From the IMG/VR virus record IMGVR_UViG_3300033273_000409, positions 1-60,780 of that record: a stretch of DNA of 60,780 nucleotides; one strand, 5' to 3'. Numbering within the stretch: position 1 is the first letter of the stretch; every line of letters starts with the position of its first letter. The notes beneath the pieces were generated by a model. That model was not told where the DNA came from, did no database searches, and worked only from the letters and a program-made list of their open reading frames with translations. The position numbers were made by a program, and so were the translations under genes. This stretch comes from a virus. Lineage: Duplodnaviria; Caudoviricetes. Shown here piece by piece: positions 4,885-46,200 of this stretch.

Positions 4885-7800
4885 ATGTCACTCACTCGCC
4901 TAACAAACCTGATTAGTTCTACTGAAGGTCGTTTTCTCTATGTTGATCCTAGTGAGTTCAACTCGTCAGACCTTATTTCAAATAGGGGCAACTCACCAAC
5001 AAGACCCTTCAAAACTATTCAGAGAGCACTACTTGAAGTTGCAAGATTTTCTTATGTCGCTGGTCCCGACAAAGGAAACGATAAGTATGATCAATACTCA
5101 ATTCTTCTATCACCAGGGGATCACTGGATTGATAACAGACCTGGATACTTTGTAGATTGGGATAAAGACACAAACTATTGGAATACTGATCAGGAGATCA
5201 ATGGGCAAGTTATTGTTCCTAAACTGACAGATGGATCCAACTTTAATATTTTTGATGACAACAACGACCTATTCAAGTTCAACTCCACTGAAGGTGGTGT
5301 AGTCATTCCTAGAGGTACTTCCATCATTGGTAGTGACCTCCGTAAAACGAGAATTAGACCTCGTTATGTTCCTGACCCAATGTATGCGGAGTATCTAGAC
5401 TCCAACAATATAGGATATGGTACGTCTGACTATAAGCAACCTGGAGCATATGTAGAGGAAGCATACAATCAGACTTTAGGAAGAACATCGTTCTTCAGAG
5501 TTACTGGTGCTTGTTACTTCTGGCAGTTCTCTATCTTTGATGCTGTTCCAACTAACACTGGTGGTATCTACAGATATGCAACTAATGACTTTGCAGATAT
5601 TGTCAAGTTCACTAAGTATTCTGCAAACTATGAGTGGAATCTATCTCAACAACCACTCACAACTGATGCCACAACTGGTCTAGGATCACACCACAAAATT
5701 ACTGGTTTTGAGTATGCCAATGGAATGTCAGTTGCTGACATTGTTTGCACTCAAGCAGTCAATGATCCCACTGCCACTGATATCTACCTCAACAAGATCA
5801 ACAGTGGTTCGCAGGCAAGAATCTTCATGGGAGATTACCTGCTGATTGATAATTCTACTGCCTCATCGAGAGAGGTTGTTAGAGTCAAGAAGGTATATCC
5901 TGAAGAGAGCAGAATCACTGTATATAGAAACCAGTTAGGTACAACAGCCCCTGCACTTCATGAAGCAAATACTAAGATCACTAAACTGAATGATCTTGGA
6001 CTGTATTATGCAAAGGTTGCTAGAGGTTTCTCTGACGCTGATATTATTGACCCTATTACTGATGCTGAAGGTGAGATTGAAGCAAGACAGCAGGAAAATA
6101 GAATTGTTGGTCCTCTGAACGTAGACAATAGAATTGAGTCTATTGCTATCAATCTGATTCAAGGATCGAGATATAGAATTAGTGTTACTACAAGAGGATC
6201 ACATGGTCTATTCAAGAACCAGATCGTTTCTTTGAAAGACCTGGATGTAACTGAAACCTCTCAAGGTACTGGATTTGGTGGTGACATCAACGGTACAGTC
6301 TTTGTTACTAGTGTTATTAATGCTAACACAATTCAATGTGAGAAGGTTCTTTCTTCCTCTACAATCCCACAGACATATAGTTTCAATACTACAGCAGCAG
6401 CAACACTGATTGCTGATATTGATACTGTTGACTCTGCATCACCATATATCTTCAACTGTTCGATTCGTTCAGTCTTTGGTATTTGTGGCATGTTGGCTGA
6501 TGGATCTAAGGCAACTGGATTCAAGTCAATGGTTGTTGCACAGTACACGGGTGTTTCGCTCCAGAAGGATGATAGAGCGTTCGTTCGTTACATGTATCAG
6601 ATCCAGAATAGAACTGATGCTGATGGCAACCCACTGAAAGATCCCGCATGGTTGACAGAATCGCAGGTAGGATTCACTCTACCATCTGACCAAGTATCGA
6701 CTACAGTTGCTACACTACACAGTGAAGGATCTGCACTCTATCGTGATGACTGGAGAACTTTCCACGTTCATATCACAAATGAGAGTTTGATTCAGGCAGT
6801 TTCTGTCTTCGCTGTTGGATTCTGTGATCACTTCTTGATTGAAGATGGTGGTGACATTTCTATTACCAACTCTAACTCTAACTTTGGTAATACAGCTCTG
6901 AGAGCGATTGGTTTCCGTGAGAAGTCATTCCCTCAGGATAAGTTTGGTAAGATCACTCACATCATTCCACCTAAGAAGATTGATGATACTGCTATTGATG
7001 AACTGTCCTGGTATCCATTTGATGTTGCAAAGGTACAATCATCTAATACAAATGCAACCAGAACCAAACTACATCTATTCAATGCTAAGACACCAAATAA
7101 GACACCAACTTATCTGTTTGACAACAAGTATGTTTTAGGTGGTAAGCAAGATGAAGACCTAGATGTTGAGATGACTCTAGGTGCTATCACTGTTGTCAAA
7201 AACGTACAACTAGCAACCAACGTAACTGGTTCTGGTTCATTCGAACACGTACAAGAGAAAGTATTTACAGTCAACCCAAATACTGACGTTTGTACTCTGT
7301 CTGGCGGTCAAACTCACCAGTGGAGAACTGGTACACCTGTCAGAATTGAATCTGAGATGGGTTACTTACCTGATGGTATTGAACCTAACACCACATACTA
7401 TATTATCTCAGAGAATGGTGGTAGATGGACAAGTTCTGGTCAAGGATGGAATGGACCAACTGGAACTATTACAAACAGAGATAGTCAGTTCAAACTTGCT
7501 AAGACTATTGAAGAAGCAAGAGCAGGTACTGCTATCGATGTTCGTACTGATAATCCACCCAAAACTGTCAATACACAGGGTGAAATTACGGCAACTGGTG
7601 AACTGAGGGTCATCCAAAGAACCTCAGACATGAGACCAACTCCTACATCATTTGAATTCATTACTAGTACAAACTCTAACGAGTTTATTACTGTTAATGA
7701 TGCAACTGCTTTGGGACCAACAGAAATTCCTCACGGATTTGATAAGGGACAGCCTATCTTCTTCGTGAAATCTTCTGCGACAGATACAATGCCATCTCTG

Positions 7801-10800
7801 TCGAGTGGTCCTCTGATTCAGACACAATTCTACTATGCATATCCAACTAGCACATCAAGATTCAAGATCGTTGCTACATTTGACGATGCAAATAATGATA
7901 GAAACCTGATTACTTTAGGTGCTATCGCTGCTGCTGGTTCCGTCAAAGTATTTGCTAACTCTGGTCAGTGGCAAGCTGCTCCATGGATTACAAGATGCCC
8001 ACTACAGTATGATCCTCTGAATCCACTGGGTGCCTCTAATCCTGTAGACACTGAAACAGGAACTGCTGGTAACTGGATTGTAACTACTAAGACAGCAAAC
8101 AACCAGGTTATTGATGCTCTTTTGAGTGAAGGGGACTTCCAAGGAGATCAAGCACCTAAAGCAACACAACCAGCAAAACTCAAGCGTCAGAGAGACGTTA
8201 GAACTAACTATGATAGAACATATAGATTCAGATATGTTCTACCTAAAGAGTTCAAGTCTGCTCGCCCACCATTCCTTGGTTATGTTGTAAAACTAAGAAC
8301 TAATGCTGATGGATATGTACCTGAGACATGGGATGGTGGTATTCCTGGAGACTATACTCAGTATGAAAGAACATATTACATCTATGACATCACTGAGGTT
8401 CAGGACTTTATTCCTGGAGTACAAGATGGTGTCTACTATCTGACACTGCTGCTTGCAGATATTCAGGTTGATCATGACAGAATGGTTCGTGGTGATGGTG
8501 GTTCTATCTCACAAAACTGGTTCAAGAAGTTCAAGTTTAGTCAGAGCACCGCTGAACTATATCCTTCATTGGATGCTGATAATCCTGTCAGTAATGCACC
8601 AGTCGCTAAATCAGTTGCAGACCATAGAATTCAAGGTTATGTTTACTCTGATTCTAGAAGTCATTCTATCACTAGAGAGGCAGCAGCTTCTTTCCTCAAT
8701 GATAACAACTATGCCACGGTTGCAATCTCTAACATTACTGTAGAACGTGAAGGTTCAGCAAGAAGAGGTAGAGAAGACCAGTCAAGAATCTTACCTGTTG
8801 GTTATCTGAGAAGTGGTTCTTCAAATAGAACTGAAGATGAGGGTATTCAGATTGAACTTCGTAGACCATCTTTGGTTAGATCTGGTAACCATACGTTTGA
8901 ATATGTTGGTTATGGTCCTGGTAACTACTCAACTGCTTTCCCTGCTAAGCAACAACGTGAACTGACAGATCGTGAGGTTGTTGTATCACAGGCGAAGAAA
9001 GAAGATGCGGGTGTTGTATTCTATTCTGGTCTGAACTCACAGGGTGATCTATATGTTGGTAACCAGAAGATTAATGCTGTTACTGGTGCAATCGAGATTA
9101 TTGATGAGGCAATTCTAGAGGTTTCTGCTGTACCTGCGGACAACATTCCTGTTGGTGATGAAGAAGGTGCAGATTCTGGAGATGATGTATTTGATCTTGT
9201 TGTCAAAGGATCACTAACTGTTGAGAACTCTGACCAAGATTCAGCTGCTAGACAGAAAGGATCTGTTAGGGGTCCAACTAAGTTTTTAGGTGGTGTTCAG
9301 TTCAATACACCTAAGGATGCTGGAACTAAGACCCAGAAAGTTACATTCTATGGTGCAGGTAATGGTTTCTCAGTAAGAGATACTGGTGATTATCGTGGTG
9401 TTCATGACCTATTCTCTACAAACAACGTAAGTTTGAGAGCAGTTGGTGTCGAAACTTCTGGTGGTGAAATTACATTTGAAACCTATGATACTGATTTAGC
9501 ACTAAGAAAGGACACTACACTTTGGGCGCTAACTACACGTCCACCAATGCATGCTGCTGGTGCTGGTGATAACATTGAGAACATGGTAAGTTCTGCTGGT
9601 CTACTAGTAGATGTTACCTGGGCTCATGGTCAAAGTTTTGGTGATGTTGCACACAAAGCATCTGCTGCATTGAGTGCTGATGCTACATCAAACAACCAAT
9701 CTTGGATCTTCTTACCTGATCCTGCTGGTCAAACTGATGGTGTCTGGTATCAAACAGGCATGACAAAGACTGGTGGTCTATATGCTTTTGAGGATAGAGA
9801 TACACCAACTGAAGGTAGACTAGGCATCAATGGTTACTATAGAAACTCTGCACGTACCTCTAACTTCTACATCAAAGCAGGATCTACACGTCCTAATGAT
9901 TGGTTGGTAGGTATTGATAAGTCTGATGGATCTCCTGTTATGTGGATCGATCAGTCACGTTCTGGTGCTTCTGGAGCACTGACACAACCATCAGTTGCAT
10001 ACTTCCAAGACGCTCCAAGAACAAGAATTACTGAACTTGGTGGTGGTGTTTATTCATTCGATGTTGCACCTGGATATGTTTCTGCGTTTGGTGATACTGT
10101 TGTAATGTCATCTGATCTATACCTAGAAGACGATATGTTCTTCCGTGGTCAGACTAGTGGCATCTCAATTCCTAACAGTCATGTGTGCTATTCATCTTTC
10201 CAAAATGACAATGATGAGAACTATTTCTTCAGAGTTAAGGAACCAACTAACACTAATAATGTCTATAGAAACTTCAGTCTAAACAACGGTTTCTCACAAC
10301 CTGCAGGTACACTCTTCTCACCAGAAATTCGTGATGATATTATGAACCAAGCACTACCTGTTGGTGCAGTTATCATGTGGTCTGGAACTAACTCTAACAT
10401 TCCGAGTGGATATGTTCTATGTGATGGTGGTACATACAACAACAGATTTGGTACGACAACAGTTGCACCAAACATGACAGATAAGTTTGTCAAGGGTATG
10501 TTGAGTGCTAATGGAACTGGTGGTCAACATACTCAATCAAGAACTATTTCAATCTCTGCTCACGAACTATCAAGACCAGAAATTCCTGCTCACACTCACG
10601 GTTTGAACGGTCAATACTTCGAACACAAACACAACTATACTAAAGCTTATACGTCAACGGAAGGCACTGAATTGGAGCAAGAAGGTGTGCCCGATGGTAG
10701 CAGATTGTCTTTCATGACTGATGCATTGACTAGTAATCCAGACTATGGAGATGGTGAGACCCAACCTGGACCTGATTTCCACAACGATGTAGGTGGTGGT

Positions 10801-11085
10801 AGAACTAACAGAACTGGTCCTGGTTCTGGTGGTAATCACTCACTTGATGGTGGAGTTAGTGATCCTAGAAGAGGTGACAGTAGTGGTTCTGGTAACTCTC
10901 TAGGTAATTCAAGTAACGGAAGAGCATACGCACACCATCACCCAATTCAAATTACTGGTACTGGACAAGGCGATTCTGGTAGTGTTAATGCCAATGACTA
11001 TGGTACTGGTGATTCAGATAGTGCAACTCTATCATGGGATAACCAACCAGAATGGGTCAGTCTTGTATTCATTATGAAAGTTTGA
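4885..11085 (+). CDS. Large tail-fibre-like virion protein with C-terminal tail-collar domain (2066 aa)
   Basis: Cyanophage-type N-terminus MSLTRLTNLISSTEGRFLYV; GNSPTRPFKTIQRA and IIGSDLRKTRIRP motifs; C-terminal LPVGAVIMWSG..IPSGYVLCDG collar plus His-rich HxH tip motifs; late promoter upstream. Confidence 0.8.
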   Translation: MSLTRLTNLISSTEGRFLYVDPSEFNSSDLISNRGNSPTRPFKTIQRALLEVARFSYVAGPDKGNDKYDQYSILLSPGDHWIDNRPGYFVDWDKDTNYWNTDQEINGQVIVPKLTDGSNFNIFDDNNDLFKFNSTEGGVVIPRGTSIIGSDLRKTRIRPRYVPDPMYAEYLDSNNIGYGTSDYKQPGAYVEEAYNQTLGRTSFFRVTGACYFWQFSIFDAVPTNTGGIYRYATNDFADIVKFTKYSANYEWNLSQQPLTTDATTGLGSHHKITGFEYANGMSVADIVCTQAVNDPTATDIYLNKINSGSQARIFMGDYLLIDNSTASSREVVRVKKVYPEESRITVYRNQLGTTAPALHEANTKITKLNDLGLYYAKVARGFSDADIIDPITDAEGEIEARQQENRIVGPLNVDNRIESIAINLIQGSRYRISVTTRGSHGLFKNQIVSLKDLDVTETSQGTGFGGDINGTVFVTSVINANTIQCEKVLSSSTIPQTYSFNTTAAATLIADIDTVDSASPYIFNCSIRSVFGICGMLADGSKATGFKSMVVAQYTGVSLQKDDRAFVRYMYQIQNRTDADGNPLKDPAWLTESQVGFTLPSDQVSTTVATLHSEGSALYRDDWRTFHVHITNESLIQAVSVFAVGFCDHFLIEDGGDISITNSNSNFGNTALRAIGFREKSFPQDKFGKITHIIPPKKIDDTAIDELSWYPFDVAKVQSSNTNATRTKLHLFNAKTPNKTPTYLFDNKYVLGGKQDEDLDVEMTLGAITVVKNVQLATNVTGSGSFEHVQEKVFTVNPNTDVCTLSGGQTHQWRTGTPVRIESEMGYLPDGIEPNTTYYIISENGGRWTSSGQGWNGPTGTITNRDSQFKLAKTIEEARAGTAIDVRTDNPPKTVNTQGEITATGELRVIQRTSDMRPTPTSFEFITSTNSNEFITVNDATALGPTEIPHGFDKGQPIFFVKSSATDTMPSLSSGPLIQTQFYYAYPTSTSRFKIVATFDDANNDRNLITLGAIAAAGSVKVFANSGQWQAAPWITRCPLQYDPLNPLGASNPVDTETGTAGNWIVTTKTANNQVIDALLSEGDFQGDQAPKATQPAKLKRQRDVRTNYDRTYRFRYVLPKEFKSARPPFLGYVVKLRTNADGYVPETWDGGIPGDYTQYERTYYIYDITEVQDFIPGVQDGVYYLTLLLADIQVDHDRMVRGDGGSISQNWFKKFKFSQSTAELYPSLDADNPVSNAPVAKSVADHRIQGYVYSDSRSHSITREAAASFLNDNNYATVAISNITVEREGSARRGREDQSRILPVGYLRSGSSNRTEDEGIQIELRRPSLVRSGNHTFEYVGYGPGNYSTAFPAKQQRELTDREVVVSQAKKEDAGVVFYSGLNSQGDLYVGNQKINAVTGAIEIIDEAILEVSAVPADNIPVGDEEGADSGDDVFDLVVKGSLTVENSDQDSAARQKGSVRGPTKFLGGVQFNTPKDAGTKTQKVTFYGAGNGFSVRDTGDYRGVHDLFSTNNVSLRAVGVETSGGEITFETYDTDLALRKDTTLWALTTRPPMHAAGAGDNIENMVSSAGLLVDVTWAHGQSFGDVAHKASAALSADATSNNQSWIFLPDPAGQTDGVWYQTGMTKTGGLYAFEDRDTPTEGRLGINGYYRNSARTSNFYIKAGSTRPNDWLVGIDKSDGSPVMWIDQSRSGASGALTQPSVAYFQDAPRTRITELGGGVYSFDVAPGYVSAFGDTVVMSSDLYLEDDMFFRGQTSGISIPNSHVCYSSFQNDNDENYFFRVKEPTNTNNVYRNFSLNNGFSQPAGTLFSPEIRDDIMNQALPVGAVIMWSGTNSNIPSGYVLCDGGTYNNRFGTTTVAPNMTDKFVKGMLSANGTGGQHTQSRTISISAHELSRPEIPAHTHGLNGQYFEHKHNYTKAYTSTEGTELEQEGVPDGSRLSFMTDALTSNPDYGDGETQPGPDFHNDVGGGRTNRTGPGSGGNHSLDGGVSDPRRGDSSGSGNSLGNSSNGRAYAHHHPIQITGTGQGDSGSVNANDYGTGDSDSATLSWDNQPEWVSLVFIMKV

Positions 11086-19191: not shown

Positions 19192-19468
19192 ATTACCAAC
19201 CTCCTTTCCTCACACGCCACCAAGCAATTACAGATATGAGCGTGTTCGCAAAACGTCTACTATTGATGCAATTTGGATTGTATCTAATCATCTTTTCCTT
19301 TACAGTGGGGCTAGTGCTCGTAGTATCTGGGGATTCTACAATCACAGAAAAGATCAATACTTCTCGCCCATCAATTCAAAGCGAGTCGGTGAAACGGTAG
19401 ACGTGAGCACCACCAGTCCCTGGACTGCTATGCCACTTCTCAAACTGGCACTGGACTCCACCGACTGA
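19181..19468 (+). CDS. Hypothetical protein (95 aa)
   Basis: AAGGA RBS; FPHTPP..SIWGFY..YFSPINSKRVG..TSPWTAM. Confidence 0.7.
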   Translation: MSNELPTSFPHTPPSNYRYERVRKTSTIDAIWIVSNHLFLYSGASARSIWGFYNHRKDQYFSPINSKRVGETVDVSTTSPWTAMPLLKLALDSTD

Positions 19469-22299: not shown

Positions 22300-22542
22300 T
22301 TACTCCGTTTTTCTTGTACCCAACCCAGTCTCTCTTGCTTTATTCAATCTCCACCAATCTTCTGCTGTCTCATGTGATTCAAAGTATTTTACTTTTCCGT
22401 GCCAGAATAAAGTAAACTTATCAAGTAATGACTCATATGATATCATTGGAGCTTCCTCTGATTCATATACAATGTCATTCTCATAGCAATCATGGATGAA
22501 TTTTTCCATATCTGCCTTTTCTTCTTCAATCCATCTGTCCAT
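22300..22542 (-). CDS. Acidic hypothetical protein (80 aa); only credible minus-strand gene
   Basis: MDRWIEEEKADMEKFIHDCYEND...; converges on terminator 22265-22292, with a minus-strand promoter at 22722-22750. Confidence 0.6.
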   Translation of the reverse strand: MDRWIEEEKADMEKFIHDCYENDIVYESEEAPMISYESLLDKFTLFWHGKVKYFESHETAEDWWRLNKARETGLGTRKTE

Positions 22543-22600
22543 AGTAGTAAGTGCGGAGAATAAAAAAATGTATAATAAAATATGTATGTGTTGTTTATAG

Positions 22601-22654
22601 TTTTCCACAAGGATGTGGAAAAAGTGTTATAAACTGGGGAAAACATGTGGAATA
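22601..22654. promoter_or_regulatory. Left DnaA-box-like cluster
   Basis: TTTTCCACA 22601-22609 (+) and TGTGGAAAA 22614-22622 (-); 1-mismatch boxes TGGGGAAAA 22635-22643 and TGTGGAATA 22646-22654. Confidence 0.6.
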
Positions 22655-22667
22655 TGATCTTTTGTAA

Positions 22668-22716
22668 TCTTATGTCTTCTTATGTCTTCTTATGCCAAAT
22701 CTTATAGTCATCTTAG
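22668..22716. repeat. AT-rich 10-bp tandem repeat (TCTTATGTCT)
   Basis: TCTTATG at 22668, 22678 and 22688, then degenerate TCTTATAG and TCTTAG. Confidence 0.85.
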
Positions 22717-22721
22717 CGTGC

Positions 22722-22750
22722 ATGTTAACACAAAACTCCGAAAATGTCAA
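22722..22750 (-). promoter_or_regulatory. Leftward sigma70 promoter (divergent)
   Basis: Minus strand TTGACA (22750-22745), N17, extended TG-T-TAACAT (22727-22722). Confidence 0.6.
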
Positions 22751-22774
22751 GACCTCAAAAATCTAGTCTAGGGG

Positions 22775-22803
22775 TTGACAAAAATCTCGACTAGGGTTAT
22801 AAT
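22775..22803 (+). promoter_or_regulatory. Perfect-consensus sigma70 promoter facing the repeat array
   Basis: TTGACA (22775-22780), N17, TATAAT (22798-22803). Confidence 0.9.
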
Positions 22804-22809
22804 AACTCT

Positions 22810-23060
22810 ACTAGATTCAACTAGATTTCATATAATCTCGACTAGATCATATATCTCTACTAGATCTCTACTAGACCCTTCTAGAATCGTCTATAACACG
22901 TCTAGAACTAGATCTCTACTAGATCTACTAGATTCTTCGTAATTCATAACTAGATGCACTAGATCATGTACACATATACGTACTAGATCATAACTAGATC
23001 ATGCGTGTATATGTGTACTAGATGAGCGAGAATGCGTGTACTAGATGTACGTGTACTAGA
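22810..23060 (+). repeat. Array of 17 co-oriented CTAGA (mostly ACTAGA[T]) repeats; non-coding
   Basis: CTAG starts at 22811, 22821, 22842, 22860, 22871, 22881, 22902, 22908, 22919, 22928, 22950, 22959, 22983, 22994, 23018, 23041 and 23056. Confidence 0.95.
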
Positions 23061-23155
23061 CGCACATACGCTCACCCCACTCACCCCTACCCACACCATT
23101 TGTGCGTGTTATGTGTTATAATGTGTGTGTATGTGTTAGGTATAGTGGGGGCACG

Positions 23156-23239
23156 TATTCCACAGATATTCTGTCTCAAGGGGGGAAAAACGATGAAATT
23201 TGTATAGTTTTCCACAAATATTTGAGAATCTGTGGAAAA
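23156..23239. promoter_or_regulatory. Right DnaA-box-like cluster
   Basis: TATTCCACA 23156-23164, TTTTCCACA 23208-23216 (+), TGTGGAAAA 23231-23239 (-). Confidence 0.6.
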
Positions 23240-23296
23240 CGTTTGTTTTGCTAATATTATTGATATCACGTGTACACTACGTGATCAAGTACTGTT

Positions 23297-23356
23297 GTGA
23301 CAGTTTCTGAACTGTCCACTAATTGCCCCATTCGTCCTCGGATGGGGTATTATAAT
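23297..23356 (+). promoter_or_regulatory. Early promoter cassette
   Basis: GTGACAGT-N6-ACTGTCCA; hairpin CCCCAT..ATGGGG; TATTAT/TATAAT. Confidence 0.75.
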
Positions 23357-23374
23357 ATCAATCGCAACCACTTC

Positions 23375-23575
23375 ATGGCAGATCGTATCATTGATCGTGA
23401 TTCTCTGCAGGAAAATTACATCGAAGCAATCATCGATGGAATGGATCACAAGTCCTTGTGGGCGTTCGTTTATGATAACCTGAACGATCATTTGGATAAG
23501 TATAGTGTCAATGAGTTGATTCAGGAAGTTGAAGAGTATTATCCTGAACTTCTTGAAGAAAGTGAGGCTAACTGA
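23375..23575 (+). CDS. Acidic hypothetical protein (66 aa)
   Basis: ATG after the promoter leader; IIDGMD..EVEEYYPELLEE. Confidence 0.75.
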   Translation: MADRIIDRDSLQENYIEAIIDGMDHKSLWAFVYDNLNDHLDKYSVNELIQEVEEYYPELLEESEAN

Positions 23576-34242: not shown

Positions 34243-37200
34243 ATGACCAACATTTCTCAATTAGTCGATAACCAACTACCTGAGTTTTTCGTTCAGGAAT
34301 ATCCGCTATTTGTTGATTTTTTCAAACAGTATTACAGATATACTGAAATTGATAATTCATCATCATCCATTCTGAAGAAAATTCAGACTTATCAGGGTGC
34401 AGATTTTTATAAAGATGGTATTATCCTAGAAACCATCCTTGCTTCTGACGTTAGTGCGACAGATACTCAAATCACCCTTTCTAGTGACGTAAACAAGGAT
34501 AAAGCAGTAGATAAGAATGATGTACCCATTTTTAGGAGATTTCCTAAAGAGGGATTGCTTCTCCTGAAATCAAGTAATGGTGATGAGATTGTACAATATA
34601 AGTCATACGATAAAAATACAGGTGTTTTTAGTCACCTAAAGAGAGGTGCTGCAGGTACAGTTAAATTAGGTGACCTTTTATTAGAATCTGACTCATATAC
34701 TAGTACAGATGCAGTCGCGCATAGTGCATCTGATACTACAGTAACTAATATTACTCATTTGTTCTTGGCATCTCTGTTCAAGAACCTAAAAACACAATAT
34801 TTCTCTGGTCTACCAGTAGAAAGACTAAACGAGAGTGTAAATGTACCGACTGTACTAAAATACATCAAAGATTTTTACAGATCTAAGGGTACAAGTCCTG
34901 CTGTAGAATTTTTATTCAGAAGTTCGTTCAATGACGAGAAGATTCTCGTTAGATATCCAAACGAGCAACTCATCAAAGCTTCTGAATCAACTTGGTCTAT
35001 TGATACTATTGTTCAGGGAGACTTAGTAACTCTTAAATCTGGATATACTATTGATGATCTCTCAGGATTAGTTCTAAAACAGTCAACATATGCTTATGAT
35101 CCTTCTATTATAGAAGCATCTGCATCTATTGAAAGAATTGTTGCTGTAAAGAGTGGTGACAGGCAATTATATAGAATTTTTGTCAATAGTGAAAGTACAA
35201 CAGGAACTTTCTCTCCAATAAACCAAACTCTAAGTAGAGTAAACTTTTCTTTTGGTCAAAAATCTCTAGTTGTTGATTCTACTGTAGGATTCCCAGAAAT
35301 TAATGGGATATTCTACATTGATGGAGTTGTAGATCAAAATGGAGATGCTGTTGCCTTTACATATGCAGAAAAAACTGGAACTGAGTTTTATGGTATTGAA
35401 AGTAACGCTCTAGGGTTCACTACAGCACAAAAGAATACAAGAGTTTATAGTGGAAATATTGTAAGTGTAGTAGAAGATGTTACTTCTTCTATGAATTCTG
35501 CTTTTGCTGAATTTAGACCAACAGGAGTTATTACAGACTTCAATATTGTAAATAGTGGTTTATTATTATCTGAAGGTGATAAATTTGACTTTGTTCAGTC
35601 TGGTATTGAAGGTACTACGCCAATTGAAACCTCCTGGTCACAGAATGTACCAGGAAATGAGGCAAATGTGAATTTGGTAAGTGTTTCTGGTCAGATGGAT
35701 GCAACTTATCTGCAAGGAAACTATAGAGTTACTAAGGGTGTAAACGGTGTATATGATGATGGCGATTACGTATACGTCTCTTCCAACGGATTTCCAGATG
35801 TAATTGGATCAATTGGTAATATCAATGGTGGTCCTAATGCGTTACTTAGACCAGCTTCGCAAAGACATCTGAAAAAGATTCCTAAGCAACTAAGTTTTGC
35901 ACAAACATTATATGCTCTCCCAGATGATAATACGGTTGCAGTATCTGTTGATGGTGTACCTATTATCTCCCCAACAGGAACAAATGAAATAATAACTAAT
36001 AGAGAATTGGTAACTCAAGGTGAAGTTACCAAAATCAATGTTACCAATGGGGGATCTGGTTACTCTGCAGCACCTAGGGTAACGATTAGTGGTGTTGGTG
36101 GAGCAGCAGGAACTGCAACCATCTCAAATGGTAGTGTTATTGGAATCACTATTACTTCTGCGGGTCAGGGTTATACTTATAGACCAGAAATTACTATCTC
36201 CACTGGATCTGGAGCAGTTTTACAGGCAAATTTTGGATCAAATAATAAACTAGGGGATATTCAATCTTTAGATATTGTAAACAGTGGATCTTTCTATACT
36301 CAGACACCAGATATCGAAGTTGTAGACGAATCTGGGAGGGGTAGAGGTGCTAAATTTATTGTTGAGAATATTGATCCAGTAAACGGTAATATTACATCAA
36401 TCAAGAAAGTTTCTGGTGGTTTTGACTATGATCAGTCTAAAACCAAGATTTATGTAGTATCTACTGGCACTGGAGCAACAGCAGAAGCAGAAATCAGAAG
36501 CTGGCATAGAGATAACTATGCGGCATATACACAGTTTGCTGATGATGCAAATGGATATCCTTTCCAAGGAAGATTGCCAGAATATAATGATGCATATTAT
36601 TATGTTGGTAACCCTAGAGGTTATAGAATTACTAAAAATGATAATATTACTCCTAGTGGAGTTGAATTGCCATCTGATCTCTCACACTCGCCAATTGTTG
36701 CTTGGTCTTATGATGGAGTACCAATTTACGGTCCAGTCGGATATTCAGATCCAATGGATTCCACATCTGATCTAAAGAGAGTAGAATCTTCATATTATCT
36801 GAAAGAAAATAGAGGTGTAAATGGTCCCACTGCAGTGGAATTTACTATGGGCACCTTTGTAGAGGATTATGAGTATAAACCAGAAGGAAATGCTCTACAT
36901 AAAGACTTAGATAAGCATAATGGTCGATTCTGTGTTACTCCAGATTTCCCAGAAGGTAGATATTGCTATTTCTTGACGATTCATACTAGTGATGATGTCA
37001 ATCAAAAGAATAGACAGGATGCTAGACCAAGATATCCTTATATGATTGGTCCAACATATAAGTTCAATCCCGAAGACTCTAATTTTACAACAGAATCGAT
37101 TCTATCATCTTTACCTTCTAACGCAATTAGAATTAGAGATGTAAATGATAATGTTCCTAATTTTGGAGTTAATTTAGAAGCAACTGTAACTGCAGTTTCT

Positions 37201-40200
37201 TCTGGAACTGTAGATTCTGTAATTATCGAAAATCCAGGAAACAATTACTCAATTGGAACAGATAATTATTATCCACGATTTGTTGCTGGGGATAAACTTT
37301 TTGTAGATGATACAAATACTGAGGGTGTAGGATTTTCTGGTAAGGTTGCTTCTATTATTGCAAAAAATGATTCTGGATCGGATATTGGTGTATCTTCTAT
37401 TTCATATTCATCAATTACTGGAAATTTAGACGTTAGAAAGCAAATTCTAAATATTGCTCCACCAACATTTGATGGTACAAATTTCCAGTATAATAAAATC
37501 TTTGAAAGTGATACTATTGTAGATACATCTAAGACTGTATATAATCTTGAAACTGCAATTCCATGTTCCGCTACAGATACTGTACTTAGATTTAGAGAAG
37601 CGAACACTTCCAATGTAAATATTGGAGATACTGTTGGTATTCAATCAGAAAGCATTTATATCAGTAGTGCATTCACTAATAGTGTTCAATATGCATATTT
37701 AAGTGTAGCAACTACCCAAACACAAGATCCAGTTTCACCACAGACTGACCGAGGATTCTTCTGCAAGTATGAGGGTGGTAAAGCACTGTTTGATGAAATT
37801 TATGTAGATTCTGGAGAAAATTCAACTAAAATCGGTAAAATCCTAGAAATCAATACAGTAGCAAATGTATTGAAGGTTGAGATGTATATTGATCCAGATA
37901 CACAAAATTATTATTCATTCCCAGCGTTGGGAACTGGCATTTCAAACCAAATTCAGACCGAACCTCGATATAGTCAGAATGTTAGTGCTATTGAATATGT
38001 ACAAGAAGTTACTGTTGTTAGAGGATACGATGGATCCAATGAATCCAAGCATCCTTCTGGTGTAAAATGCCCAACCCAAGTTCCTACTGCAACTATTGAC
38101 GATTATAAGGTAAGACTTCAATTTACTGGTGCTGATCCATCTTTATTTGTTCCTGGAGTTTACATTAAGGGTCAAAACTCAGATACTACCGCACGTATTG
38201 AACTGGTAGAAACCATTTCTGCAACTTCAGGATATTTGTATCTAACTGATGTAAAAGAAGGACCAAATGCTGCTGATGTTCCTAGATTTGGTATTTACAA
38301 TAATGGATCATTCAATCCAGAAACTATCAATGAAATTGGTGCTGGTGTATCAACAACACTTACAGAATCTGTTGATGGGGATGACACAGTACTAAAAGTT
38401 GTCAATAGCGATCTTTTCTATGTCAATCGTTATGTCAACGTTGGTTCCGAACTAATGAGAATCACTGACAAACAACCAGGTCAGTTGACAGTTGCTAGAG
38501 CACAGGGTGGTACTCCTGCAGATGACCATTCAGTAAATGCCACTGTAAGTATTGCAAACCATACTGCTACAACAGCAGGTGATACATATCAACTCACAGT
38601 TTCTTTGGAAAACGCACAAAGATTCTCTAATACTAGCACATTCAATGATAACAATGGTGATAGCATTGCGATCGATACTGTTGCTGATGGTAAATTATTA
38701 GGAGAGGAGAATACTTTAACTATTGATGCTCAAAATTATGACAGGTTCGCTCTCGGTGATATAATCAAGATTGGAACGGAGCAAATTAGAATTGATAGTA
38801 AGAGAACTAATCTTCTAAGAGTTACAAGAGGATTCAATCAAACTACTGCAATCAATCACAACCATAATCTCTCTGTAGAAAATGTTAGTAAGTACGATGC
38901 ACTCGTAACTACAAATACTCCTCATGATTTGATTGATAGTGATCTCATAGAAATTACTGGAGATCCTTCATTAGAGACAGTTCAAGAGACTGGTATTGCT
39001 GTTAGAATTTCAAACGGTCAGTTTGAATTCAATAGTGTTCATACTAATGGAAATTATCAGCAAAATCCGTCATTGACTTTAGTTTATGGTCATAAGTATG
39101 TTTTTGATGTCTCAGATTCATCTAATACAAATACTACTCTTGGATTGTATTCTGATAAAGACTTCAATAATGAAATTTCTGTAGAAAGAATTGGTGTCCC
39201 TGGTTCATTGAACTCTAAAGTTATTTTGAAGAATACCAATAGAGACAATACTAATATTTACTACAATAATCCCAATGCTCTTATTTCTAGCCTAACAAGT
39301 AGACTTACATTTATTGATGATCCATATAATGTTTCTTTGACTGGGGTATTTGATCTGACCACCACAACATTCAAGTATCTTGTCAGATCTAGACCAGAAG
39401 GGAATGCTAGAGGAACTAAGACACTTGCACTGCAAAGTCATAGGTATTCTGGCAAGATTAATAGAATTTCTATTACAGATAGTGGTGATGGATATCAGTC
39501 ACTGCCAGTTATCAAGGGTATCTATTTTAGAGAAGAGGATGCATTCAGAGGCACCGTTATTACTGATGATGATGGTACAATTCAAAGAGTAGATATTGAT
39601 TTTGGTGGAACAAGATATATTTCACCAAAAGTATATGTCATTGGTAATGGAAGTGGCGCATCAATGACTGCTGATGTTCTTGACAATAGTGTCAGACGAA
39701 TCACCATTAATAATGGTGGTTTTGGGTATGATAAAGACACTCAATTAGTCTTAGTTGAAGAAGATGCTAGAACAGCAAGAATTCTTCCTCAAACTAAAAC
39801 CATTGGTAAGATTTCAGCATTCAGTATCAAGAATCCTGGACTTGATCTGACAAGTAACTATACGATGGCACCTCAGGTCAGAATTCCGACCACTATCCAA
39901 GTTACTAACATCAATGGTGAATATAGGAAGGGTGAGACTGCATATCAAGGAAACGTAAATAATCCATCAGGAAAGGGTATTGTTGAAAGTTTTGATACTA
40001 AGATCAATGTTCTAAAACTTGTCGGCGTCACAGGTCGCTTTGTTGATGGAGAAACTGTTGTTGGATATACGTCTTCAGCAACTAGTAATGCAAATAAAGT
40101 AAACCTGTCTAAGGTTTCTGCAACTGTAGGTGCTCTAACTACAGTTGAAGGCGTATTTACCGATGAATTCGGTAAAATGAATACTGCATCTCAAAAGATT

Positions 40201-43200
40201 CAGGATTCTTACTTCTACCAAGACTTCTCTTATGTAATTAGATCTTCGATTCCAGTCTCTGATTGGAGACAAACTATCAAGACATCAACCCACCCCGCAG
40301 GTTTTGTTGTATTTGGTGAGGTCATTATTGACTCTTCCCAAAGTGTAGCAATGCTACCTGTTCTAGGTGAGGTCAAGTGTCCTGCAAATGACGTTACTTC
40401 TTCTTGGAAATTTGATACTAGAACGGAGATTTCAAATACTGGTGATACTGCAGGTGCTCTATATCTTAGAAATGCATTTGGTGTTCAGGTTGGGGATGCT
40501 CTGAAATATCGTTCTACAAGTCAAGATGAAGTTATTTCTTGGAATGCTACAAATCTTGCAGGGGATCAGATAACAGGAAGACTGGTTCATGATCGTATTT
40601 ACCATGTGCTAGAAATTACTGCTACCGATCAATATGGAACTTGGGTCAAAGTGGGTCAATATCATCCATCAGATAAATTTGCTGATGTTGCTCACAACAA
40701 AGAAAATTACATTTATAATTTAGTACCAACTGATATTTCATATAAGCATGAGTTTAGATGTGATAGTCAAAATCCAAAGACTCTAATTACAATCAACGTT
40801 ATCAAAAAGTTTGTTGAGATTGAAGATACTAGAGCACAATTAGGACCATCACTCAAAACTATTCAAATTAATAAGTTCTTCCAATTCAATAGGAAGCGTG
40901 GTATTGGTTCTCTTATTGTATCTGAAGGATCTGTTGCGGTTGATCTCAAGCAAATTGATGATCTAACTCCAACCTTCGTAGAAGGTGTGAAGATGTATGA
41001 TTTGAGAAGTCTTGGAACTAATTTTATCCCTTACAATGAAAATACTCTAATTATTACTCTTGATGGTGTTGTTCAAGAACCAGGAAAATCATTCAGTATT
41101 ATTAACGATAGAAAGTTAGATGAACTAGAAATTACAACAACTGGTGCAGGAGAACTTGAATTTGATTCTTGGAGAGTCACTAATATCTCAACTAATGCAG
41201 GTATTGCTGATATCAGAACTGTGTATAATGATCTGGATTTTGTTTACATCAAGGCAGAAAGTTTACCATCATATACTACTGAATTTTCAGGATATACAAC
41301 AGCACCGTCTGCACAAGGGTTTATTAGAAGATTCCCCAAAAAACCATTTGCTCCTGTCCAAAAAACCAGAAAACCCTTAGGTACTTTTGGTACTTTTGTG
41401 AATGGTGTTCAGATTTATAATGTTCTGCAAGGAGATAGTTATAAAAATGGGGGTTATTGGAATATCAACCATGGAAACTGGTCTGGAAATGAGGATACTT
41501 ACAATGGTTTAGTTGACTCTGCTGGTACATATTTTCACTATAACAATCCAATTGAACTAAGAAGACAACTATCTGATAATATTTCTCCTTCTGGTACATA
41601 TACTGAAGCAACTTCATTATCTCACTCACCAATTCTTGGTTGGGCATATGATGGTACTCCCATCTATGGTCCATATGGATATTCAAATCCAGATGAAGTT
41701 TCTTCTATTGTAAAGATTGATAGTAGTTATTCTAAGAGATCTATTGCTACAAGAAATGTTCTTCCTGACGGAACTATTCTTCCAGATGCTGAAGTTGGAC
41801 CCCCAGTCAACTCGGTAGAGTTTACTGTAACTGCTTTTGTAGATTTTACTGGATCGACCGCAGCGTTTGAGCAAGACCAGAATATATTACAAGTCAATAG
41901 TGGAACGAATAGTGATGTAATTGCAGGAGTTTCTGGAACGGTTGTTTCTTATGATTCAACTACAAGATTGATGCTTTTGAATAATGTTACTGGAACATTT
42001 GCTGATGGTATGTGGATCAAGTCTCAGACTGGATGGGCACAAATCAATAGCGCACCTGTTCGATATAATCTTGGATATTTTGCTGAAGATTATGTCTATA
42101 TTGATGGATCGGGACATCTTGATCAATATAATGGCAGATTCTGTGTAACTCCAGAATTCCCAGAAGGAAGATATTGTTACTTTAGCACTATCGAGTCAAC
42201 AACTCCCACATATGGCGGAGCAAATAATGGCGCATATCCATATATTGCTGGTGTTGACATGTATCATAGATTTTATGAGGAAAACCGCCTCAGAGCATCT
42301 GAGCTGAAAGATAAGATTATCTTCAATGATCCTCCTCTAAAATATACTGATCCAATTAATGGACAAGTAAATGTACAGAGATTCCAAGGAAGACTGTTCA
42401 GTTTTGTTGATGATAACAATAACCAAGAGTATACTAAAAAATATAAGGATATCTCTTCACAGTTTGATGGAAATAAGACAACTTTCAATCTAGAACTTAC
42501 TCACGGTCAAGCACTGTATGCACCTGATGATGCGGCAGAGGCAAATGAATATGCATTTGTTTGTATTGATGGTGTTCCTCAGGTATATGGTGAAGCGTAT
42601 ACCATCAATGAAGCGGGCAATACAATCACATTTACCACTCCACCAAAAAGAATTGGTAAAGTGATCAATATGAGTGAAGTTACTAATATTTCCCAATTTG
42701 CTGATAGTGAAATTGTTGTTGGTCAAACCACACAAGCACAAGGAAAGGTTCTATCAAGAACACCATCTGGTTATGAAGGTAAGGGTATTATGAAGGTTGA
42801 GGTTATCCGTGGTGACTTCCAAAATGAAAACATTGTTGGTCAAACATCAAATACTACAGGTTCTATCAAACTGACTGGAACTATTACTACGGGTAAAGAT
42901 AGATTCCTTGATGCTGCCAATTTGATTGAAGCAAACAAGGAATTGATTGCTAATGAGGCAGTTGATATTATGTTGAATTATACTGCCTATACAGGATTCT
43001 CCGTACCAGGAGGAACTCAAAATTGCGTTGATGATGTCAAAGACGTTATTGGTGCAGTGGTCAATAACTTAAGATTTGGTGGTAATGATTATACCTGGGA
43101 TGCAGCAAATCTATATGCAACTGGTGGAGCACTTCAACATCTTGTAGGTGAAGAGGAACAATCTAAACTAGTATTCAGATGGGCAAAAGACCTATGTATT

Positions 43201-46200
43201 CTTGCAATGCAGAATAAACTTGGTTATAACCCCGTTGATGGTGCAGGATATCCAACAAATCCAGTTGAAGATAGATTTGTTGATGCAGCAAATTTGATCA
43301 CAAGCAATAGAGACTTTATTGCAAATGAGGCTGTTCAGAGAATGCTTCTTGATCCAGCAAATTCTGGATTCTCAGTTCCTGGTGGAACTGTAAATTGTGT
43401 TGATGATGTCAAAGATGTCCTAGATTCTATGGCATTCAATATGAGATATGGTGGAAATAGTAAGGTTTGGGATTCAGCAAACTTTTATGCCACTACAGAT
43501 AATCTTTTGGATGAAGAAGATGAATCGATTGAGGTTTTCAACCATGCTAGAGCAATCGCTATTGAGGTAATTAATAACATTGCAGTAACTGTTCAAGGAA
43601 CACATGGTTTGACACAAACGTTTGACAATACCATTACTGTTGATGCTGGGGGATGTGCAAATGTACAATCAGCGATTACTACGTATATTGGTATTATTAC
43701 AAGCACAATTAGTGATAATACGTATTTGAATGGTGTGACCAGAACATCACCTAAAGCATATCCAATCACATATAATGGTCAGATCAACCCAGTTACTGAT
43801 GATACAATTATCGTTGATGGTGCGAGTTACACTGGATCATGTGCAAATATTGAATCTGCAATCTATACACTATTTGATATTGTAATCAATACAATCACTA
43901 ATCCTACAAGTCTATCTGCTATTACTAGAACATCGGGTAAAGGGTATGTAGAGAAAGTTGGATTCCCACAAGAATTCTTCGCATTTGCCAATGGTAAGTA
44001 TTCTGTTCTTGATTCTTTTGATACCTCACTTCAAGACAACACAACGTTCTTGCTGAAGAGATCTGGAGAACTTATTGTACCAACCAGTTCTCTTCAAGTT
44101 ATTATGATGGTTGATGGTGTGATTCAGGAATTTGGTAAATCATATGTCTTGAATGAGGCATTGGTTGAATTCTATGAACCAGTAAGAAAGGGATCTAAAG
44201 TCGTTGCACTTTACTGGTATGGTAAGGATCTTGAGAAGATTCTTCAGGGTTATAATATGCCTCTATATGAACCAAACTTCATCAAGAGAAACCTTATCAC
44301 TGGTACTCCAATCACATATACCGATCCAGGTGGATTCACTACGAATAAACTGATCAGATCAATTAAACCTGAGGATGTGCCTGTATTTGAATATCTTGAT
44401 ACTTCGAAAAAAGTCCAAATTGATGGTGAGGCACAACCAAGAACTATCTTTAGTGTTTCTGATAGAGACATTATTCAATGGGAGACTGATGATACTGAGA
44501 GCAACACCTACTCGTTTGATGCAGCAAACATCAATACTGTATTCCGTAAAGTATATCTTGATGAATATACTGGAACAGCACAAACTTCTGATGTTATTGA
44601 ACCTGGCACAAGAGTAACATACAATAACAATGGCAATCCAGATGTTCCTGGGTTGACTGGTGGTCAGCAGTATTATGTTGGATATCGTTATCCTGAAAGA
44701 GCAGTTCTGTTCTACAATGATTATCAAACATCACTCTCATCTGACGAGACTTATTCTATTGCAATTGGAACCAGTACGGGTGTTCATAGCATTACTATTC
44801 CATCAGATCTATATGGTCTGAGACAAGCAAATATCACTACCAGTGATTATGGTGGTATTACTAGAGGACAGGGTGCAGATCTTGTTGCTAGAGTTAGATG
44901 GACCGCAACTGTTGCAAGTACTGCATCATATGCAGTAGACACATTGCTATTTGCTGGTGGTGAAACTGTCGCTAAAGTAATCCAGGTAATTTCGCCAACT
45001 GAGGTCGAAATTCAAATGTTCCCAGATAGGGCAATTGCACTAAACTCTGTTGTTACGACTGACCTTGGTGGATCTAATCCACAAACAGTTACTGGAAGAG
45101 TCAATGGTAGAGTTGTTGCTATTGAACCTGTTCAGGGATCGTTCCCAATCGGATCAGATTATGAGACCGCTCCAGTAATTATTATTAGACCAGCTAAAAA
45201 TGATTCTGGTAGATATGCACGTGCATATTCTCAGATCAATAGAAATAATCAACTTGAAAATTGTGTTGTAACTAGTGAGGGTGAAGAGTATTACGAAGTT
45301 CCTGATGTACTCGTCAGTAGAGAATATGATGTTATTACTCCAGTATATCCAACTGTCAAGACTGCAGGATATCTAAACTTCTGGACATCACAAAACACTC
45401 AAATTTCTGTCAGCACCCTTATTGATGCTAGATCTGAAGTTGAGGTTGAAATTCTAAGGAATATTGATGTTGGTTTAGATGAACCAGTTGATGATCAAGT
45501 AATTACTATAAATCTTGAACCAAAGATTCTTGATGATTTTATTACCACACCAGGAAAAACTTATTCATACAATGGTGCGGCACCATTTGAAGAAGATTTG
45601 GCAGATGCAGTCCCAGCAACAGTCACTTCTGTTGGACTATTGAGACTGACACCAACATTCAGTCTCCTTGAGGAAGATAGATTTGCTCTTGAGACATCGT
45701 TTGAGATTGGTAGTTTGGATCAGTTCCAAGACTTAACTATTGGAACGGTAAGTGATAGATACTATTCTTCGATCTATAAAGATCTAAATAACCGCGTGAC
45801 CAGATATAATATGTCACCAATTACATCAACTGTTGATGCTGTGGCAACAGTGACATCTAACTATTCAACCACAGACACTTCACTTTATATTTCTAGTGTA
45901 GCTGGTTTCAATCGACTTTACGTTGAGGGAACAACTTTCTGGATTTATCCTGGTGCAGAGATTTACAATGAAGTTTCCACTGAAATGATTGGTAGAGTTG
46001 AGAGAATTATTGATTCAAATACTTGGATAATTCAATTAGAAAGAGGCAAACAACTTACACTTGGTCAAGGATTGACATATGCCAAGAATACTGTGAAGGT
46101 AACAGAAGTTGCCGATAGATATGGATATGTTCAATTTGCTGAAACTAATAGAATGGAAGTTATTAGATATGGAACTGTGAATTGGACTAATAACTCATTG

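Follow-up and report, generated by a model that had tools for sequence, protein, structure and literature searches.

Cyanomyoviruses are among the most abundant marine viruses, and the site and mode at which their replication starts are not established. Could a gap between genes in one of their genome fragments mark such a start site, and would the DnaA-type boxes within it recruit the initiator of the host? The gap spans 799 bp (22543-23341) of IMG/VR record IMGVR_UViG_3300033273_000409, which we analysed in full (60,780 bp, hereafter the window) and which is a fragment, ~32% complete, of a T4-like cyanomyovirus with Synechococcus phage S-BM3 (family Kyanoviridae) as its nearest named relative. 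A preliminary description, made from the sequence alone, had taken the locus for an oriC-like region in which cyanobacterial DnaA boxes bracket a promoter-driven repeat array, and had proposed either a hybrid origin that co-opts host DnaA or a datA-like sponge that titrates it. Here we report that the locus, judged by its sequence, represents a composite, non-coding module that T4-like cyanomyoviruses share, and we tentatively favour, as its most likely function, an early origin of replication that transcription would open with the help of host DnaA. The gap holds the following elements, in window coordinates:

22559-22599, no strand assigned: AT-rich tract, a candidate unwinding element, with a conserved AAATGTAT..AAAA motif; it adjoins the first box on the left
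22596-22654, both strands: left cluster of DnaA-type boxes, with perfect boxes at 22601(+) and 22614(-), head-to-head and 4 bp apart, and one-mismatch boxes at 22635(-) and 22646(-)
22668-22694, no strand assigned: 10-bp tandem repeat TCTTATGTCT, 2.7 copies; other lineages have different short repeats at the same position
22694-22774, minus strand: conserved block with a leftward promoter-like site and the conserved motif GCTAAGAT(G/C)AC (nhmmer E 7e-14)
22761-23060, plus strand: CTAG(A) repeat array with a unit of about (A)TCTCTACTAGATC, lineage-specific, 20 CTAG
22775-22803, plus strand: consensus sigma70-type promoter sequence, TTGACA-17-TATAAT, pointing right, 12/12 matches
23073-23098, plus strand: C-rich stretch CACCCCACTCACCCCTACCCACACCA at the end of the CTAG array
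23156-23239, both strands: right cluster of DnaA-type boxes, with a one-mismatch box at 23156(+) and perfect boxes at 23208(+) and 23231(-), head-to-head and 14 bp apart

The 9-mer TTTTCCACA occurs four times in the record, at 22601(+), 22614(-), 23208(+) and 23231(-), with all four copies inside 22601-23239; shuffling yields a mean of 0.98 per whole window, and the probability that all four would fall inside 639 bp is 4.6e-6 if a uniform spread is assumed. When up to one mismatch is allowed, 7 of the window's 25 boxes fall in 22543-23341, where 0.33 would be expected. The inverted pairs of perfect 9-mers at both ends (22601/22614 and 23208/23231) and the one-mismatch boxes at 22635, 22646 and 23156 are where the preliminary description had placed them, a count across the record finds TTTTCCACA clustered here alone (4/4 in 639 bp), and the 15-mer reported from both ends belongs to a 22-nt repeat found at 22596 and 23203. 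The seven GATC sites of that description become nine in 22560-23290; six of the nine are part of CTAGATC units, their density is just twice the window mean, and they are mostly a by-product of the CTAGATC repeat. The left cluster is kept in S-BM3 and in locus L007 (L-numbers denote loci fetched in pattern scans of contigs and genomes, G-numbers bacterial genomes), and S-CREM1 has a pair resembling that of the right cluster.

The arrangement recurs in other phages. At the orthologous place, S-BM3 has an AT-rich tract, TATAGTTTTCCACAAGG, weaker boxes, the block, a TTGACA/TATAAT promoter and a CTAGA array, and scans of viral contigs for the 15-mer and for head-to-head box pairs returned many divergent contigs with the same architecture in different sequence. 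Viewed with the block as the reference for orientation, the module consists of a cluster of TTTTCCACA boxes; an AT-rich, AAATGTATTAAAAAACATAGG-like motif that flanks the boxes on one side in some subgroups and on the other side in others; short tandem repeats that vary by lineage; a block of ~80 bp with the consensus ..TAAATGT..TTGT(A/G)NTCTTAGC(A/G)NGC...TGTCAA(G/C)-CCCC; and a rightward consensus promoter, often accompanied by a second box cluster or more repeat arrays. Searches with a hidden Markov model (HMM) of the block, built from an alignment of 59 distinct instances, gave one clear match per genome in S-BM3 (E 3.5e-15), Syn9 (1e-8; 52,648-52,715), S-PM2 (2.5e-8; 19,299-19,359) and S-RSM4 (7e-7), and weak matches only in P-SSM4 and S-CREM1, that of S-CREM1 lying inside its box cluster. 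The module sits at ~52.6 kb in Syn9, ~19.3 kb in S-PM2 and ~6.7 kb in S-BM3. Box clusters at 52.57 kb in Syn9 and 19.23 kb in S-PM2 directly adjoin the block, and five of the six perfect boxes in S-CREM1 (178 kb) fall within 650 bp.

Boxes and block were found together whichever of the two was used as bait. With a head-to-head box pair as the sole bait, 68 of 122 viral loci hold the block (E < 1e-3), as against none of 121 bacterial loci retrieved with the same pattern, and 51 of these 68 encode proteins known from reference cyanomyoviruses. Conversely, two exact block cores served as the bait, and a locus was kept only if it passed the block profile and had both flanks present; the filter was applied because many 14-mer core matches fell in unrelated genes by chance, which overstates the box-less fraction, and the 15-mer pattern scan likewise gave many chance matches. 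At least two perfect boxes lie within 450 bp in 56 of the 75 distinct loci so obtained (short type 30/30, long type 26/45), mainly 50-200 bp off the block and on one side, whereas a reversed control motif was found in 1/75. Box clusters stand at the equivalent place in S-BM3, Syn9, S-PM2, S-CREM1 and dozens of IMG/VR contigs. The comparison does shift the core of the locus: the two box clusters bracketing the array had been taken for it, and what is conserved is the combination of boxes, AT tract and promoter block, with the right cluster and the CTAGA array varying by lineage.

Other sequences stand near the block in part of the family. Inverted repeats of TTCTCAATAA/TTATTGAGAA replace the DnaA boxes in S-RSM4 (140,300-140,380, minus strand), L171, L582 and L602, a pattern that suggests an exchangeable binding-site module. 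Many modules (L146, L187, L159, L228 and L185) carry the palindrome TGTGCCA-N10-12-TGGCACA just past the leftward -35, probably a further protein-binding site, and the window has CTAG repeats at this place. The small open reading frames (ORFs) gp86 and gp87 annotated in Syn9 (DQ149023, 52,477-52,797) overlie its box cluster, AT tract, block and consensus promoter and are probably not genes.

Are the boxes sites for DnaA? Their sequence is that of the published cyanobacterial DnaA-box consensus, as the preliminary description had claimed, and for Cyanothece DnaA binding in vitro is described (PMC4674748, in excerpt). Spacing between head-to-head boxes peaks at 3-5 bp (33/131), 14-15 bp (53/131) and 24-25 bp (12/131) in phages and at 2-5 bp (51/126) and 13-16 bp (36/126) in bacteria, and the matching peaks argue for a geometry and a helical repeat common to phage and bacterial pairs. 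Phage and bacterial boxes are also alike in their flanks, with A preferred at -2 and G, hardly ever A, at -1. Boxes in direct orientation, separated by 2-3 bp, are common as well, which points to the 9-mer itself, rather than an RNA hairpin, as the unit. No DnaA domain IV, the DNA-binding part, is encoded in the complete genomes of Syn9, S-PM2, S-BM3 and S-CREM1 or in the window. Host DnaA would be the most economical binder of the boxes.

For the host side, five low-GC genomes initially taken as an oriC comparison were uninformative (they have TTTTCTACA boxes and are probably not picocyanobacteria) and were replaced by five genomes of 2.3-2.9 Mb (G358, G228, G308, G364 and G366) whose PsbA is 98-99% identical to that of Syn9 and which are probably marine Synechococcus. 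In all five, perfect boxes form a conserved cluster between genes, and a second pair is retained in three. The cluster of G358 (C1:1486953-1487263; L672 2454-2764) consists of one plus-strand box followed, ~290 bp on, by one or two minus-strand boxes 11 bp apart, and is alike in the other four; it is flanked by a GNAT acetyltransferase gene and an ORF without assigned function, lies far from dnaN and dnaA, and could be a true oriC or a datA/DARS-like site. The second pair, perfect and head-to-head with starts 44-45 bp apart, lies between DUF2811 and DUF1818 genes in G358 (C1:1554809-1554862; L673 2310-2363), G308 and G364. Two low-GC genomes of the phylum (L374, L375), which have no psbA match and are probably non-photosynthetic, carry 6-8 TTTTCTACA boxes, a variant consensus, upstream of dnaN.

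The origin that we favour draws further on the sequence beside the left cluster. By nearest-neighbour energy, 22559-22599 is the least stable 40-bp duplex among all 60,740 such segments of the record, and the equivalent tract ranks third among distinct sites in S-PM2, fourth in S-BM3 and sixth in P-SSM4. The divergent sigma70 promoters of the preliminary description are present as promoter-like sites, the rightward one with 12/12 and the leftward one (TTGACA-17-TAACAT on the minus strand; -35 at 22750-22745, -10 at 22727-22722) with 10/12 consensus matches, in a scanned stretch whose total of six promoter-like matches equals that of shuffled sequence (5.9). Equivalents of the rightward promoter stand right of the block in Syn9, L012, P-SSM4 and S-BM3. 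On the minus strand of the block, exact TTGACA is found in 112 of 169 distinct blocks and a full sigma70-like leftward site, with a -10-like hexamer 16-18 bp after TTGACA, in 68 of them. The predicted leftward transcript would cross lineage-specific repeats and boxes, here including the AT-rich 10-bp tandem repeat already noted by the preliminary description (TCTTATGTCT x2.7 at 22668-22694), before entering the AT tract ~115-155 bp downstream of its predicted start; minimal T4 origins measure ~100 bp (PMC3016281, in excerpt). Transcription diverges locally at the window and S-BM3 and does not at Syn9 and S-PM2, where the leftward promoter has no leftward gene to serve, which argues that this promoter is kept for a role other than making mRNA. 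Within the block, a sigma54-like reading of CTGGCACA was dropped for its unfit spacing (to our knowledge, cyanobacteria also lack sigma54), and NtcA and integration host factor (IHF) sites were dropped for unfit consensus by eye.

What the sequence shows directly is the set of features, how they cluster, recur in relatives and occur together, and how easily the duplex melts. We infer that DnaA binds, that the promoters are active, that an R-loop or primer forms and that replication starts here, and these steps may be connected as follows. Host RNA polymerase would fire from the leftward sigma70-type promoter in the block, and its transcript would cross the short repeats, then the boxes, and so reach the AT-rich tract. 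Host DnaA on the box pairs would help to open this tract or to keep it open, and might also stall the transcript. The phage helicase loader and replisome would assemble next, as at the promoter/R-loop origins of T4, and the strong rightward promoter would drive early genes and, in the lineage of the window, also a CTAGA-repeat leader. A single theta origin has been predicted for Syn9, according to a review (PMC2984593, in excerpt).

The array to the right of the block is specific to this lineage. Its 20 CTAG lie within 22763-23059, and 14 of the window's 16 ACTAGAT fall in 22761-23046, 13 of these 14 on one strand, which agrees with the array previously described between the box clusters. It begins at the consensus rightward promoter, with one CTAG inside the promoter spacer, and is common only to S-BM3, L007, L026 and L028; the genes flanking such repeats differ among the phages that have them, and the C-rich CACCCCACTCACCCCTACCCACACCA at 23073-23098 is identical in L026 and L028 despite differing surroundings. 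Elsewhere other repeats take the place of CTAGA, namely AAATCTCAAAA/GATTTCTTAA in S-PM2 and S-RSM4 and ATTATAGTGTATTA in L009. Contigs of two metatranscriptome libraries from different studies cover the array: one library has a contig at 22715-23056 with a depth of 11.3, against 2.3-3.9 over the flanking genes, and the sole two contigs of the other on a 2.2-kb stretch are 22825-22975 and 23038-23185, at a depth of ~17. One RNA contig runs on into the downstream gene. The contigs are unstranded, cover at most 39% of the words per run and may include DNA carry-over, uncovered parts carrying no weight; they hint that the array is transcribed. Its role could be that of an extended leader, of an array bound by protein or of an RNA made up of repeats. 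Rfam gave no match in 22543-23341 and one weak chance match elsewhere (E 0.59), and RNA fold z-scores of -2.66 for the array and -3.64 for the leftward RNA are uninformative on function, as they arise from the palindromes and the box pair. ToxI-like antitoxin repeats were considered and dropped, the repeat unit being too short.

A number of observations weigh against an origin of the kind proposed. T4 itself replicates independently of DnaA. Perfect boxes are missing from 14 of 45 modules of the long type, and no box cluster accompanies the block in S-RSM4 or P-SSM4; conservation of the boxes in relatives is to this extent incomplete, and they are a frequent and not an obligatory part of the module. 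Among cyanobacteria, perfect head-to-head pairs are rare (5/251 genomes), and neither dnaN nor dnaA lies beside the box clusters in the PsbA-matched host genomes, which argues that the phage layout was not copied from a recognised host oriC. The AT tract is unexceptional in some phages (rank 106th in Syn9, 188th in S-CREM1, 44th in S-RSM4), and the leftward -10 of the short type, TAAGAC, is atypical in lacking the final T, the full site being found in 68/169 blocks only. The CTAG sites are not helically phased, the best Rayleigh R of 0.44 at 10-11 bp being reached by 536 of 5000 random placements. No Rep-like initiator was recognised by PHROG and Pfam among the 15-18 neighbouring ORFs, and inspection of 22655-22700 by eye, on both strands, found no TAG/TAA-type trinucleotide run of a DnaA-trio, which is a weak test. 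The extreme of the detrended GC skew lies ~1-13 kb from the block in Syn9, P-SSM4, S-BM3 and S-CREM1 and not near it in S-PM2 and S-RSM4, and the raw cumulative skew is monotonic in the six complete genomes; being dominated by gene orientation and inconsistent, GC skew lends support neither way.

That a purely regulatory role of DnaA fits most of the same facts also counts against an origin, and the main rival, which we hold to be rather unlikely, is a switch of early transcription without origin function. DnaA would act there as a factor or roadblock downstream of the leftward and upstream of the rightward promoter and tie expression to host DnaA and growth state, much as DnaA is a transcription factor in bacteria and stimulates pR of lambda. 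The module is a divergent promoter pair whose leftward member would read towards the boxes, which stand 50-200 bp away from the block, the contigs of the RNA libraries are deeper right of the block than over the flanking genes, and the other palindromes at similar places in some lineages (TGTGCCA-N10-12-TGGCACA, TTCTCAATAA) look operator-like. Such a switch leaves unexplained why the least stable duplex lies beside the boxes and why Syn9 and S-PM2 have a leftward promoter with no leftward gene, and it is compatible with an origin, given that T4 origins are activated by transcription (PMC3016281, in excerpt). The module might instead modulate DnaA in the manner of datA or DARS, with accumulating phage copies titrating or recycling the host protein and disturbing host initiation. 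Perfect, well-spaced box clusters are far denser in the phages than in the hosts, the window has two of them, and three-box layouts with two direct boxes and one inverted box resemble DARS cores; yet each genome has just 4-7 boxes, a quarter of the modules have none, and the promoter block and AT tract, needless for a sponge, are the best conserved parts, which leaves this reading a slim chance. As for the choice between hybrid origin and sponge posed by the preliminary description, the layout is origin-like in its boxes, least stable duplex and divergent promoter-like sites, and nothing separates the two functions.

Two further explanations dispense with DnaA. The 9-mer could be bound by a phage-encoded protein, its match to the DnaA box being coincidence or mimicry; the other repeats at the same place in S-RSM4, L582 and L602 suggest exchangeable pairs of binder and site, and most neighbouring small proteins belong to no known family. 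We consider such a binder improbable in view of the exact match to the published consensus (PMC4674748, in excerpt), of spacing and flank preferences that equal those of bacterial boxes, and of the recurrence of the same 9-mer across very divergent phages, whereas true lineage-specific repeats differ; the four complete genomes encode no homologue of DnaA domain IV, which leaves room for an unrelated fold. The main product in the lineage of the window could also be an abundant non-coding RNA whose 13-17 CUAGA(U) motifs would sequester, in the manner of a decoy or sponge, a nuclease or some protein that binds RNA. The perfect promoter directly upstream speaks for this, as do the 13 of 14 array ACTAGAT on one strand and the RNA contigs, which in the small library lie solely within 22825-23185 (depth ~17) and in the other reach 11.3 against 2.3-3.9. 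Set against these are the unstranded nature of the contigs and possible DNA carry-over, the absence of the array from most relatives, which have other repeats there, the lack of an Rfam match, a z-score (-2.66) that stems from the array palindromes, and the contig that enters the downstream gene, so that the array may be just a long leader; we judge an RNA of this kind to be quite improbable.

Returning to a transcription-opened, DnaA-assisted origin, the module looks like a T4-type origin to which DnaA boxes have been added in the manner of oriC or of iteron plasmids. At T4 oriF and oriG, a promoter is followed by an A+T-rich unwinding element in which the transcript forms an R-loop primer; oriE needs an early promoter and has evenly spaced iterons, and the direction of transcription changes close to T4 origins (PMC3016281, in excerpt). 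The cyanophage module, from the same broad phage group, likewise has a promoter-like site that would read towards an easily melted AT tract, short direct repeats nearby, local transcriptional divergence in the window and S-BM3 and, as at oriE, an early-type sigma70 promoter sequence. Unlike it, the T4 origins have no common sequence motif and no DnaA boxes, the promoters of oriF and oriG depend on MotA, and there are at least five origins per genome where the module is single-copy; an R-loop at the module is a proposal only.

Iteron origins such as P1 oriR, F oriS, RK2 oriV and pSC101 gather DnaA boxes, iterons, an AT-rich region and GATC within a few hundred bp, with boxes at both ends in P1, and direct-repeat arrays near boxes and an AT region are present here as well (the 10-bp tandem and the CTAG array, with other types elsewhere). 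These origins need an adjacent Rep gene, and none was found among the ORFs neighbouring the module, whose repeats are lineage-specific and not evenly phased and which belongs to a lytic T4-like phage with its own replisome. With bacterial oriC the module shares a cluster of consensus boxes, helical spacing, an adjoining AT tract and the box sequence of cyanobacterial oriC; it differs in having no dnaA or dnaN neighbour and no DnaA-trio by eye, in its strong divergent promoters and phage-specific repeats, and in its head-to-head pairs, which are rare in cyanobacteria (5/251). The datA and DARS sites of E. coli are non-origin clusters of 3-5 DnaA boxes that likewise act by DnaA binding, but they are chromosomal, depend on IHF and on how the boxes are oriented, and lack both a promoter block and an unwinding element. 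Phage lambda also has host DnaA boxes near a promoter, and transcription from pR activates ori-lambda; it uses its own initiator O on iterons inside the O gene and host DnaB, and has no sequence relation to the module.

The surroundings of the gap are those of a T4-like phage. The window encodes a baseplate hub/lysozyme and a helicase and has giant ORFs, among them three on the plus strand (4885-11085, 2066 aa; 34243-46269, 4008 aa; 48024-56711, 2895 aa), that presumably specify structural or fibre proteins. Two genes of opposite strand border the gap:

22300-22542, minus strand: left flanking gene, 80 aa, with its ATG at the 22543 edge; the leftward promoter would read into it
23342-23575, plus strand: right flanking gene, DUF7326 / phrog_1352, by PHROG/Pfam family match

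For the left gene, no PHROG or Pfam family was matched, and a homologue stands at the equivalent place in S-BM3 and L007. No small ORF within 22543-23341 matched a family above the cut-off, in line with the gene-free region described earlier. Megablast of the region against phages matched a flanking gene alone. Directly upstream of the DUF7326 gene, 23297-23341 holds a small hairpin (GACAGTTtctgAACTGTC) and leader with 87-95% identity in S-WAM2, S-H9-1 and S-RSM4, where it is annotated within hypothetical proteins.

No description of the module was found in the literature on cyanophage origins and DnaA boxes that we searched, and an earlier mention may exist elsewhere. As a conserved, single-copy module with host DnaA boxes, it offers a precise origin candidate for cyanomyoviruses and a practical landmark for genome annotation, given that gp86 and gp87 of Syn9 have been called across it. 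A stricter version of the proposal, which we regard as doubtful, would have one defined origin that requires DnaA together with early transcription, the onset of replication being gated by the DnaA state of the host (growth, light, cell cycle) and the multiplied boxes drawing DnaA off the host chromosome. Should the module be an origin, it would be the first sign of a T4-like phage enlisting the initiator of its host, and phage replication would be linked to host physiology.

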